From: Coleofasciculus chthonoplastes F2-STO-03
GTDB lineage: Bacteria > Cyanobacteriota > Cyanobacteriia > Cyanobacteriales > Coleofasciculaceae
NCBI GenBank assembly: GCA_040222015.1
Contig: JAVJWO010000216.1
Location: 1 to 64,000, forward strand
Length of the DNA: 64,000 nt
Direction: 5' to 3'
Positions 52,655-59,087 of this stretch are shown here, piece by piece (positions within the stretch are counted from its first letter, which is position 1; each line of letters begins with the position of its first letter). The notes below the pieces were generated by a model. The model worked only from the letters and a program-made list of their open reading frames with translations, was not told where the DNA came from and ran no database searches. The translations under genes were made by a program, and so were the position numbers.

Positions 52655-55135
52655 ATGGGTAGCCGACGGCGTCTTAACAAAAAAACATCCTGGGAATCGA
52701 CTTCTTTACCAGTGCCGAATCCTTTACAACCGCGCCCATTTGGTAAAGGTATCCAGGCGAGACGAGCCGAGTTGCCAACAACCAATGTGTTGCAAACTCG
52801 TCCCTTCGGGACTCCCAAGCAAGCATCTACGCCTAAACAAGAGATGCCAGAGCTCCAAGCTAAACTCAAACAGGCAGAGAGCTTTGGCTATAATGCCGCT
52901 AATATTCCCACCGTACCTTCGAGTAACGCTACACCGATTCAGGCAAAGCTGACTATAGGAGAACCGAATGATAAGTATGAGCAGGAAGCGGATCAAGTAG
53001 CATCTCAAGTCGTCAATCAGATTAATTCGCCTCAGACTCAGCCGTCGGTTCAGGGTAAGACAGTACAACGAGAAGCCTTACCCGAAGAAGAGGAAGAAAC
53101 TCCCGTTAGTGCCAAACTCGAATCAGGGACAGTGCAACGGGAAGCCTTACCCGAAGAAGAGGAAGAGGAAACTCCCGTTAGTGCCAAACTTGAATCTGAC
53201 ACTATCCAGCGTCAAGGTATTTCTCCTGAAGAGGAAGAGAAAAAAAAAATTAGCCCAAAGTTAATGAGGAAATCCCAATCGGGAACAGGGAGTACAAATG
53301 CCTCCGTTAACTTAGAAGAATCCATTCAACAAAAGCGGGGTCAGGGACAATCCCTCTCAGAGGATATCCGCGAACCGATGGAGCAAGCATTTGGGGCTGA
53401 TTTCAGCGGGGTAAAAGTACACACTGATAGCCAATCTGACCAGCTTAATCACTCAATTCAAGCGCGTGCTTTCACAACAGGACAAGATGTTTTCTTCAAA
53501 CAGGGCGAATACAACCCTGGAAGTAAGGATGGACAGGAGTTGCTCGCTCATGAGTTAACCCATGTTGTCCAGCAGACAGGTACTGTCCAGCGCGATGATG
53601 ATCCGGCAAAAAAAGACAAAAAAAAGTCTAAGAGTACCATTGAGGAACTCAGAGACGCATTGGGCGGTTGGGGTGCAGATTCAGCCCAGATTTTGCAGTT
53701 GCTAGGTAAAGCGTCTGCCTCTGAGAAGAAGCAGATATTAACTGACTCTAAACTGATGGGTCAACTCCAAAGTAAACTGAGTCGCCGTGAGATGATTCAA
53801 GCCCTCAATGCTCTGGAGGCTCCCCTTAAACAAAAGCTGAATGCAGCAATGAAGGGTTGGGGTTGTGATGCTCAGGTGATTAAGGATCTGACAGCCAGTG
53901 CCAAAGACACAGAGAAGAAAGCCGTTTTAGCTGACACAGCACTGGTTGCTCGACTCTCCAGCGAATTGAGTCGAGCCGAGATGCTAGTGATTCTGGGTAA
54001 TCTCAATGCCCCTATCAAAGACAAACTCAATGCGGCGATGAAGGGTTGGGGTGCTGATGCCGAAGCGATTAAGGCTCTGACCAAGGGGGCATCGGATGCA
54101 GAAAAGCAGGGGATTTTGAATGACACAGCGCTGGTTGCTCGACTCTCAAGCGAGTTGAGTCGAGCCGAGATGCTAGTGATTCTGGGTAATCTCAATGCCC
54201 CTATCAAAGACAAACTCAATGCGGCGATGAAGGGTTGGGGTGCTGATGCCGAAGCGATTAAGACTCTGACCAAGGGGGCATCAGATACAGACAAGCAGGC
54301 AGTTTTAAATGATGCGGCACTGGTATCGAGGCTTTCGAGTGAGTTGAGTGGGGAATCATATACCACCATTATTCTCACGTTGTTGGCAGGGGTTACTGAC
54401 GCAGATTTTGATACGTTCATCAAAAGCATGACCCAAAGCCAAACTCAAGCTCTTTTGAACAATATTTCAACCTCAGATCAGGCTACTTATGCAGCCTTAA
54501 TTGAGAGAATAAAAACTGCTCGGATCATTGCGACAGGTGAAAATATGCTGGGAGAGTTGCAATGGCGTGGGGGTTCTGGACCTGATCAGAGTGCTGGCTA
54601 TCAAGTGAACGAAACTACAACTTGGGGTCACCAGAATGATTTTGCCAGATGGATTCGTGGTAATGGTCCTGAGCCAACTCCTCCCAACGACACGATGAAC
54701 TGTTGGGAAGGGGTACTTTTTATGGCATATAAAGCAGGTGTAGTTAACAAGAGTTGGCTGGTTGATATTCATGATGCAGCAGCTAAGGCTGGACAAAGTG
54801 CGGCAAGTATAGACGCATATAATTCTGTTTTAGAGAGCAGATTATATTCCGGAGCTCGCACGGAAGTTCTATATGATCCTGGCACAGGTCTGAGAACGGG
54901 TACTATTCCAGCCGGAAATATTATTTTTATTAATAGACTGAATCATGTTGTGCTTTCTAAAGGGACAACAGATGGGGGGGGTAGGCATGAGGTACTTAGC
55001 TTATGGGTACTTCCCAACCCAGGACAGCCTGTAGGTGTGTGGACAGGTAGCGAGATTGGTGTACTACAAGATACGACATTAGAAGAAGTCAGTCAGCCAG
55101 GACAAAAAGTAGAATTTGCCCCACCTCCTTGGTAA
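52655..55135 (+). CDS. DUF4157 (eCIS core domain) protein with four annexin-like repeats and a C-terminal papain/NlpC-P60-like domain
   Basis: IQAKLTIGEPNDKYEQEAD, FGADFSGVKVHT, ARAFTTG and LLAHELTHVVQQ motifs. Four 63-aa (M)KGWG.D repeats. NCWE...GNIIF...HVVL near the C terminus. Confidence 0.85.
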   Translation: MGSRRRLNKKTSWESTSLPVPNPLQPRPFGKGIQARRAELPTTNVLQTRPFGTPKQASTPKQEMPELQAKLKQAESFGYNAANIPTVPSSNATPIQAKLTIGEPNDKYEQEADQVASQVVNQINSPQTQPSVQGKTVQREALPEEEEETPVSAKLESGTVQREALPEEEEEETPVSAKLESDTIQRQGISPEEEEKKKISPKLMRKSQSGTGSTNASVNLEESIQQKRGQGQSLSEDIREPMEQAFGADFSGVKVHTDSQSDQLNHSIQARAFTTGQDVFFKQGEYNPGSKDGQELLAHELTHVVQQTGTVQRDDDPAKKDKKKSKSTIEELRDALGGWGADSAQILQLLGKASASEKKQILTDSKLMGQLQSKLSRREMIQALNALEAPLKQKLNAAMKGWGCDAQVIKDLTASAKDTEKKAVLADTALVARLSSELSRAEMLVILGNLNAPIKDKLNAAMKGWGADAEAIKALTKGASDAEKQGILNDTALVARLSSELSRAEMLVILGNLNAPIKDKLNAAMKGWGADAEAIKTLTKGASDTDKQAVLNDAALVSRLSSELSGESYTTIILTLLAGVTDADFDTFIKSMTQSQTQALLNNISTSDQATYAALIERIKTARIIATGENMLGELQWRGGSGPDQSAGYQVNETTTWGHQNDFARWIRGNGPEPTPPNDTMNCWEGVLFMAYKAGVVNKSWLVDIHDAAAKAGQSAASIDAYNSVLESRLYSGARTEVLYDPGTGLRTGTIPAGNIIFINRLNHVVLSKGTTDGGGRHEVLSLWVLPNPGQPVGVWTGSEIGVLQDTTLEEVSQPGQKVEFAPPPW

Positions 55136-55202
55136 ATGTAAGTTCAGAGTTAGCTTTTTATAGGCAAGTTCTTAACTGTAGCCTATTTCATGACAAAATA
55201 AG

Positions 55203-58142: not shown

Positions 58143-58256
58143 GTGGACAGCATACAAGTTTGAGAAGAAGTAACTTTAGCTTGGCGATAAAACTTGACAT
58201 AGACACGAAATAATGCTATGTGTCAAGTATATCTCCAGTTAAATTTGGAGGAGGCT

Positions 58257-59087
58257 ATGGGTATCCGACGACGAATCCGCAAAAAAAGGTCTGGGGAAGA
58301 CGAGTTTATCCCAGCACCGAGTTCGTTACAGACGCGCTCATTCGGTAATGGTATCCAAGCAAGACTTGCTAAGTTACCTGTCACTAATCTATTGGAAACA
58401 CGCCCCTTTGGTTCTCCCAAAAAGGCATCCACTTCATCCAAGGAAACCGCAGATATCCAGACGCAACTGAAACAGACGGAACGTTTTGGGTATAACGCGG
58501 CAAATATTCCTGTGTTCCCACCCAAGAAATCGAAAAAGAAACCGAAAAAATCAAAAGGGAAAGCGTCTCATCCAGATCAAATCGTCACCCATAACCATCC
58601 CGGTGGAACACCTCTGAATCAGGGTGATATTTTATCCGCGATCGCAAAAGACCCCAAAGAGGTAAAAGCCGTGGGTGATTATGGTAAATTTAGCCTGCGG
58701 CGTCAGCAGGATACCTGGCAAATTAGTCAAGAGCAAGTTGCGAGGGCGTATGCTCAAGGGGTTGAGCAGTGGTTGCGAGAATGTCCCAAGGAATTAACGG
58801 AACATTATCCAGGGAAAAAGGATATCCCACAAGCTGGAGCAACGTTTAAACAAGATCTGTTTATGGCAAACTATTTTGCGGGCAAAATTTTGGCAGAGCA
58901 AAGTCGAGGTGCTGTGGTTTACGAACACCCTGATGAGAAGGAACTAATCCAAAAACGGGCGAACCTGTACCGCGAGAGAATTGTTGTCCCACTTAAGCCA
59001 ACCTCCCCTATCAACGCTAATCCGGCGGGTACGAGTCGGGGAACAAAGCTGCAAACCCCGAAATTGATTCGCGATCGCATGGAATAG
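58257..59087 (+). CDS. Putative eCIS cargo: shared leader, Lys-rich linker and JAB-like (THNHP..D) domain
   Basis: GGAGGAGG SD before ATG 58257. N-terminal 85 aa align with the 52655 protein. THNHPGGTPLNQGD motif. Confidence 0.7.
   Translation: MGIRRRIRKKRSGEDEFIPAPSSLQTRSFGNGIQARLAKLPVTNLLETRPFGSPKKASTSSKETADIQTQLKQTERFGYNAANIPVFPPKKSKKKPKKSKGKASHPDQIVTHNHPGGTPLNQGDILSAIAKDPKEVKAVGDYGKFSLRRQQDTWQISQEQVARAYAQGVEQWLRECPKELTEHYPGKKDIPQAGATFKQDLFMANYFAGKILAEQSRGAVVYEHPDEKELIQKRANLYRERIVVPLKPTSPINANPAGTSRGTKLQTPKLIRDRME

Follow-up and report, generated by a model that had tools for sequence, protein, structure and literature searches.

A conserved N-terminal leader on diverse effector-like proteins is linked to Streptomyces-like contractile injection systems in cyanobacteria

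Two nearby genes of Coleofasciculus chthonoplastes F2-STO-03, here called A and B, begin with the same 85-residue leader. They lie in a stretch of 64,000 nucleotides (assembly GCA_040222015.1, contig JAVJWO010000216.1, positions 1 to 64,000 of the forward strand; hereafter the window). This leader is real, conserved, and linked to contractile injection systems (CIS; eCIS for the extracellular ones). It probably serves, in filamentous cyanobacteria, as an N-terminal loading sequence read by an ATPase for the cargo of a Streptomyces-like (lineage IId-like) CIS. That the leader causes packaging is inferred from genomics and from analogy to the Photorhabdus virulence cassettes (PVC) and AlgoCIS.

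RESULTS

Leaders A and B were aligned in the first-pass annotation of this DNA, which reported 52 of 85 identical residues without gaps. The translations of 52655-52909 and 58257-58511 confirmed this count. Both begin with a basic stretch, carry two L(Q/E)xRxFG (RPF) motifs, at residues 24-30 and at residues 46-52, and end in FGYNAANIP (residues 77-85), again as reported. The two proteins diverge thereafter, as had also been reported: in BLASTP of the whole proteins, only residues 1-87 aligned strongly (E 2e-26), and the second-best segment stood at E 0.009. In the DNA, 172 of 255 nucleotides are identical, and codon positions 1, 2, and 3 agree in 61, 73, and 38 of the 85 codons, the pattern of a constrained protein. 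Pooled pairwise ratios of nonsynonymous to synonymous substitution rates (dN/dS) were 0.13 for leader A (7 genus orthologs) and 0.22 for leader B (9 genus orthologs; 0.17 versus G024), and those of the neighboring regulator and ATPase genes were 0.05 and 0.07. A Pfam scan of both leaders returned no family even at E 5. The first 35 residues have a summed hydropathy of -35.3 and -31.6 in the two leaders, and the net charge is +9; the proven Pdp1 signal has a summed hydropathy of -36.9 (PMC11297309; this and the other sources cited are drawn on for parts of their texts). In the gene B model, the predicted local distance difference test score (pLDDT) is below 50 across residues 1-104, although with a shallow alignment such low confidence is no proof of disorder. 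Altogether, the leader is predicted to be a hydrophilic, basic, and mostly disordered N-terminal module.

Six genes of the host genome carry the leader (two on C216, the contig of the window, and one each on C47, C65, C94, and C97), and leader A alone as the query gave matches in 14 of 41 related genomes. A profile built from 31 rows was scored against 1.84 billion representative proteins (cutoff, E 0.001) and yielded 118 proteins, with the match inside the first 60 residues in 114 of them; the exceptions are P0069, P0073, P0092, and P0114. All members bearing an organism name are cyanobacterial, many members being unnamed. The length of 85 residues had first been taken as that of the unit itself, and the weaker matches corrected this to a conserved core of ~65 residues, which opens with a basic stretch and continues through a single RPF motif and a polar spacer to a PDLQ-like helix and FG(Y/H)N. 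The form found in the window is this core with its RPF segment doubled, and at the phylum level the 65-column core was needed, the 85-column profile matching 7 of 401 genomes only.

The Pfam scan covered 96 of the 118 members, 22 short ones being omitted. DUF4157 was found in 30 of the 96 (11 of 54 plus 19 of 42), and a match to it was absent from 66, some being fragments. The families behind the leader include ribonuclease, endonuclease NS_2, Ntox16, M91, C2 and M15 peptidases, and Tox-PLDMTX, with further matches to annexin, peptidoglycan-binding, APH kinase, and glycosyl hydrolase-like families; no housekeeping family was found among the scanned members. N-terminal matches on diverse toxin domains are what the first-pass annotation had predicted, and the family agrees with it. 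The last 250 residues of 80 leader proteins fell into 69 clusters, a diversity that is partly built in because the library was clustered at 50% identity; three of the clusters pair one DUF4157-positive protein with one DUF4157-negative protein.

The distribution of the leader was examined in 251 evenly drawn genomes of the order, using the core profile at E 1e-4 with at most 24 candidates scored per genome. The profile matched 42 genomes, spanning 12 families, and the eCIS marker Pvc16_N matched 114. All 42 leader-positive genomes fall within these 114, in line with the expectation that the leader would be confined to eCIS-positive genomes and contrary to the alternative that its matches are unrelated to eCIS presence. 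Likewise, in a set of relatives, 20 of 20 leader-positive genomes also hold Pvc16_N and the ATPase with a winged-helix domain (WHD).

The host genome carries two CIS. The sheath encoded on contig C85 finds its best match in the Streptomyces structures 8BKY/8BL4 (E 1e-106, versus 1.6e-48 for the Anabaena sheath), and the CIS of these structures belongs to lineage IId (PMC10066040). Sheath, tube, spike, baseplate, and terminator genes are present on C85, C173, and C22, from which we infer one lineage IId-like system, typed by its sheath. The sheath encoded on C23 is closest to AlgoCIS and to the thylakoid-anchored CIS (tCIS) of Anabaena. Queried with the C85 sheath, the 251 genomes returned 81 matches; 76 had E <1e-160, and the five near 1e-71 were set aside as the other type. 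The leader occurs in 41 of the 76 genomes with a Streptomyces-like sheath, in 1 of the 38 other Pvc16_N-positive genomes (G518, a weak match in an 85-residue frame), and in 0 of the 137 marker-negative genomes, which provide a control against low-complexity false matches. Within four families (f1, f7, f17, and f22), the leader and the Streptomyces-like sheath mark exactly the same set of genomes. The proposal of a cyanobacterial eCIS signal is thus supported in part: the leader goes with eCIS, but the linked type is the Streptomyces-like one rather than a PVC or a thylakoid-anchored syringe. Assignment of the leader to a thylakoid-anchored/AlgoCIS-like system was considered and dropped, since the leader follows the C85-type sheath and not the C23 type. 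The C23 sheath had no match at E 1e-70 in G001, G005, and G008, and its search matched 7 of 251 genomes, a query too narrow to type the remaining genomes.

Leader genes often come directly after an Afp15-like ATPase gene. An Afp15/Pvc15-like ATPase gene precedes gene A in 5 of the 6 genus loci examined, and the host genome has 4 Afp15-like ATPase paralogs, each ≤2.7 kb from a DUF4157 gene. A leader gene lies ≤11 kb from a long Pvc16 gene in 20 of the 42 genomes, going by the listed coordinates, and Pvc16 and an ATPase stand beside tandem leader genes in all 4 loci read, which were chosen for their leader matches. G015 has seven leader genes, two of them with DUF4157. In G015 and G019 (L145, L148), the long Pvc16 gene is immediately preceded by a response regulator gene; the response regulator of the window (49568-50251), which is divergent and adjoins the ATPase gene, differs from it.

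A second N-terminal class, with an SSWTPT-like start, was observed in G000:C94:3640-5148 (L142; G000 is the host genome), G000:C214:502-3099 (L141), L155, L160, L165, L169, L171, and L187. It sits on DUF4157 genes placed head to head with an ATPase paralog of their own and is unmatched by the RPF profile. In a tree of 73 ATPases of ≥500 residues, built by a quick method with Shimodaira-Hasegawa-like approximate likelihood ratio (SH-aLRT) support only, the 20 ATPases ≤3 kb from an RPF leader fall in two groups, both lying outside a clade of 30 rows (support 99) that holds all 8 ATPases beside an SSWTPT-like N terminus. The leader-class label changes 6 times on the tree versus a shuffled mean of 18. 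Among the 20 RPF-linked ATPases, 10 were fetched via a leader match and six are near-copies, and 32 of the 73 rows have no nearby candidate cargo; as linked genes travel together whether or not their products interact, the clustering is a lead for specificity and no proof. In the RPF-linked part of the tree, a long-branch ATPase group (L150 and L151; G001:C130 and G008:C43) lies beside DUF4157 genes with a diverged RPF-like leader below the threshold. Coleofasciculus genomes have 3 to 9 ATPase-domain matches (some fragments) versus one Streptomyces-like sheath (4 of 4 genomes). It is conceivable, if somewhat doubtful, that leader classes and Afp15-like ATPase paralogs form an address code, with one syringe in common and each satellite ATPase choosing a cargo class of its own for it. 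Modeling the ATPase together with leader A gave no answer: the score was 0.00 in two runs, and the controls were not folded.

Gene A varies behind its leader (Table 1). Its six genus orthologs keep the leader and DUF4157 and end in at least four other C-terminal domains, and the genes downstream change along with the C terminus in the six genus loci. The swap point is the end of DUF4157: the contig of another strain departs from the window at 53577 and returns at 57634, with 414 other letters between. Because leader and DUF4157 are constant while C termini and downstream genes are exchanged, gene A is a polymorphic toxin slot. As a lead only, its C terminus is possibly a papain/NlpC-P60-like cysteine hydrolase (Atlas 0.88, below the 0.9 mark). 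The 491-residue beta-propeller protein encoded next is, by its position, the candidate immunity protein for gene A. In G003 and G007, a 292-residue protein with the same end residues as that of the window stands behind a different gene A C terminus. The barstar gene lies directly behind a ribonuclease-ended gene A in G001 and G002, and PF00545 was found in the like protein P0002.

Gene B is the stable member of the pair, present behind gene A and ahead of a gamma-glutamyltransferase gene in all six genus loci. Its lack of DUF4157, already reported, was supported by a Pfam scan that was empty at E 0.01. The strong ribosome site at 58247..58254 favors the start at 58257 over that at 58218. The frame is open in 9 of 9 genus genomes (272 to 280 codons) and in G024 (283). 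The folded domain gave a model with a pLDDT of 80.6, for which the best fold match had a Z of 5.0 and Foldseek gave nothing; the full-length model (pLDDT 44) had no fold match either. The domain has no family in Pfam, PHROGs, or NCBIfam and no short stand-alone relatives were found; it was seen only behind the leader, in proteins of 272 to 283 residues (9 matches). The JAB/MPN motif is HxH-x7-S-x2-D with an upstream Glu. The gene B motif, HNHP-x5-NxxD, is one residue shorter and misses the Ser, and an Atlas match at 0.76 points to a cluster of which 13% is Prok-JAB; a JAB-like metalloenzyme, degenerate in form, is no more than a weak lead. Two metatranscriptome runs contain 5 to 7% of the words, as contigs only; run X2 has a flat depth of ~400 to 500 over genes and intergenic DNA alike and is not readable as expression. 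Intergenic repeats of the window (52450-52540, 59200-59340, and 61275-61470) draw many unrelated contigs in that run.

Table 1. Features of the window and of the host genome, with G000 coordinates for genes outside the window
Feature	Location	Strand	Description
Afp15/Pvc15-like AAA+ ATPase, candidate loader	50326..52404	+	WHD PF22977 and AAA PF00004; directly upstream of gene A
Gene A, 826-residue polymorphic effector	52655..55135	+	Leader, acidic repeats, DUF4157, helical repeats, variable C-terminal domain
Leader A, 85 residues	52655..52909	+	Basic start, two RPF motifs, predicted short helix, FGYNxxxIP
RPF motifs of leader A	52724-52744, 52790-52810	+	
FGYNxxxIP of leader A	52883-52909	+	
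DUF4157 (PF13699)/eCIS core domain of gene A	53354..53584	+	Residues 234-310
C-terminal domain of gene A	54422..55135	+	No Pfam match; Atlas neighbors at 0.88 include CHAP/NlpC-P60 clusters
491-residue lipoprotein-like beta-propeller protein	55203..56678	+	N-terminal hydrophobic stretch with Cys; phrog_8401 beta-propeller, E 3.5e-6
292-residue protein, candidate left-over immunity gene	56731..57609	+	No family match
Barstar-like immunity gene, orphan here	57633..58142	+	PF01337, E 1.2e-22
Shine-Dalgarno-like GGAGGAGG	58247..58254	+	Two bases before the gene B ATG
Gene B, 276-residue DUF4157-less candidate cargo	58257..59087	+	Leader, Lys-rich linker, folded domain
Leader B, 85 residues	58257..58511	+	Low model confidence; one helix at 61-75
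Folded domain of gene B, ~143 residues	58572-59000	+	Invariant HNH motif
Streptomyces-like CIS genes	G000:C85:25423-31900, C173:30157-43336, C22:60703-62563		Split over at least three contigs

Other observations concern the wider family and the host genome. A DUF4157-less leader protein (L146:8040-8975, in G078) matches Agrobacterium VirD5 (PF04730, E 3.9e-16), a family also seen in P0154. Two leader proteins of ~1,700 residues without DUF4157 (G000:C65:20020-25065 and C94:32987-38236) have in common an FGWx-SKAKAF-like helical segment and may be tape-measure-like cargo. At G000:C23:25533-33383, the 3' part of the ATPase gene is doubled and the DUF4157 gene stops right behind its domain, beside an HNH/RRXRR-like gene; the C23 module is possibly decaying. 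On the minus strand of G000:C158:3936-8516, a DUF4157 frame of 1,527 codons has neither leader nor early Met and lies in a stretch like the leader-bearing C94 protein; its 5' end seems to have been lost or interrupted.

DISCUSSION

Position, chemistry, cargo range, distribution, and linkage of the leader all agree with a loading model. In the model that we propose, modeled on PVC and AlgoCIS, a hexamer of the ATPase would recognize the leader, unfold the cargo, and thread it into the tube, DUF4157 being optional for loading. The window would represent a satellite ATPase-effector-immunity module, distant from the structural genes on C85, C173, and C22. Gene A would be its slot for exchangeable toxins, and gene B would be a second cargo that stays fixed. 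In AlgoCIS, loading requires a disordered N-terminal domain and the active ATPase Alg15 but can do without DUF4157; cargo N termini are alike within a system and not between systems (10.64898/2026.05.27.728243). Likewise, Pvc15 picks cargo by signal peptides (PMC11495950). If the address code is true, cargo selectivity could be tested within one genome by exchanging leaders and ATPases, and if leader classes pair with ATPase paralogs, so could the specificity model suggested for Pvc15 and its signal peptides (PMC11495950).

Nevertheless, several points weigh against a leader that is read by the ATPase. The sampled genomes are related and so not independent, and three of the 42 positives (G010, G028, and G078) supplied training rows to the profile, so that Fisher values for the association come out too strong. 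No leader match was found in 35 of the 76 genomes with the matching sheath, which speaks against a universal role, and 3 of the 5 DUF4157 genes with a readable start in the host genome (on C94, C214, and C23) have unrelated N termini; together, these two observations allow the leader to be no more than one signal among several. Two other groups of DUF4157-less leaders show weak selection (dN/dS of 0.41 and 0.61, on few changes). Moreover, the proven PVC and Afp signals are poorly conserved in sequence (PMC11297309, PMC11495950, 10.1101/2023.11.13.566157), and in the closest studied CIS type, DUF4157-less cargo is linked via a DUF4157 partner protein (PMC13277306).

The strongest alternative, although rather unlikely in our view, is a CIS-linked role other than reading by the ATPase, such as docking to the spike or baseplate, binding of a DUF4157 adaptor in trans, or keeping the toxin stable or in check inside the producing cell. 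Such a role accounts equally well for all the data on distribution and selection. It is also consistent with the leader genes on C47, C65, C94, and C97, which have no adjoining ATPase, with the FGYN-like motif copies inside the protein bodies of 5 of the 118 members and of the C97 protein, and with Streptomyces lividans, in which DUF4157-less Sle1 binds the DUF4157 protein Sle2 via its N-terminal region (PMC13277306). That region of Sle1, however, is a coiled coil of 440 residues, unlike a short disordered tip, and the leader starts at residue 1, with arrays of leader genes beginning directly behind the ATPase.

The leader could also be a passenger that marks ancestry and carries no signal, if recombination created new effector genes downstream of a 5' end already in place (ribosome site and first codons). 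The C termini of gene A orthologs are indeed swapped through recombination, most leader positions are variable, and the two weakly selected groups mentioned above would be in keeping with this. We consider it improbable, because between leaders A and B dN is 0.25 whereas dS is 1.8, with synonymous sites near saturation (dN/dS 0.14), and the DNA likeness upstream of the two leaders dies out within ~45 bases. Moreover, conservation falls on the same columns in proteins with DUF4157 (28) and without it (40), with a Spearman coefficient of 0.67 (rows aligned to the profile), and the motifs persist over the 12 families. Finally, gene B might be a partial copy of gene A that is not expressed, which would make the pair uninformative on a signal. 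This is very hard to maintain: its domain indeed lacks a family or fold match and was seen only in leader proteins, but its frame is intact in 10 of 10 genomes where it was found, its domain is under purifying selection (pooled pairwise dN/dS, 0.11) as is its leader, its ribosome site is strong and its fold model confident, and the family result is independent of it.

We therefore return to the loading sequence and to what is new in it. N-terminal eCIS loading signals are already known, and an alignable, subtype-specific one was not found in full-text searches of the literature. According to the cited parts of two reports, no conservation of sequence or residues was detected in eCIS signals (PMC11297309, 10.1101/2023.11.13.566157), for which reason published signal prediction uses bulk chemistry (PMC11297309); for lineage Ia signals, rare homology and alignment groups are described (PMC11495950). 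In the full texts searched, we found no description of this leader and no paper joining Coleofasciculus with contractile injection, although some of the proteins or a related motif may be listed in the predicted-toxin tables that accompany PMC11297309 or in the AlgoCIS preprint's extended data. For the question of how eCIS select their cargo, a leader that a profile can define offers conserved residues to mutate. Its profile finds cargo that is without DUF4157 or distant from the structural genes, and it draws attention to a Streptomyces-like CIS of filamentous cyanobacteria that has been little studied and has a large, polymorphic set of cargo.

Compared with known systems, the leader resembles the PVC signal peptides read by Pvc15 and Afp18's N-terminal signal peptide in being N-terminal, hydrophilic, and disordered by prediction, on diverse effectors encoded near an ATPase (PMC11495950, 10.1101/2023.11.13.566157). 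Those signals, of lineage Ia, are described as 20 to 50 residues long with rare homology or no conserved residues; going by these descriptions, the leader is set apart by its 65 to 85 residues with conserved RPF and G(Y/H)N motifs. The Streptomyces CIS provides the closest solved sheath to that of C85 and likewise has DUF4157 genes beside the cluster, but the cargo described there is tape-measure-like and linked through DUF4157, and a short leader does not appear in the descriptions consulted (PMC10066040, PMC13277306). Gene A, with its swapped C termini and downstream immunity genes, is like the DUF4157 (PF13699) eCIS polymorphic toxins (PMC8213781, PMC11297309); the leader, by contrast, lies upstream of DUF4157, has no Pfam family, and marks DUF4157-less proteins that a DUF4157 search misses.

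A further likeness in design is to the AlgoCIS cargo Cgo1/Cgo2, described as having a disordered N-terminal domain, an optional DUF4157, a variable C terminus, and N termini that are alike among the cargo of one system. AlgoCIS cargo needs the AAA+ ATPase Alg15, and here leader genes often adjoin an Afp15-like ATPase. The two differ in CIS lineage, the leader not tracking the AlgoCIS/tCIS-like sheath, and, compared by description, in extent: some similarity within pairs in AlgoCIS, versus one profile for >100 proteins and 12 families here. In the type VI secretion system, the markers MIX and FIX are folded N-terminal domains that occur on diverse effectors and go with a single secretion system. 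The leader is like them in marking diverse effectors of one system, while MIX and FIX are folded and belong to another.

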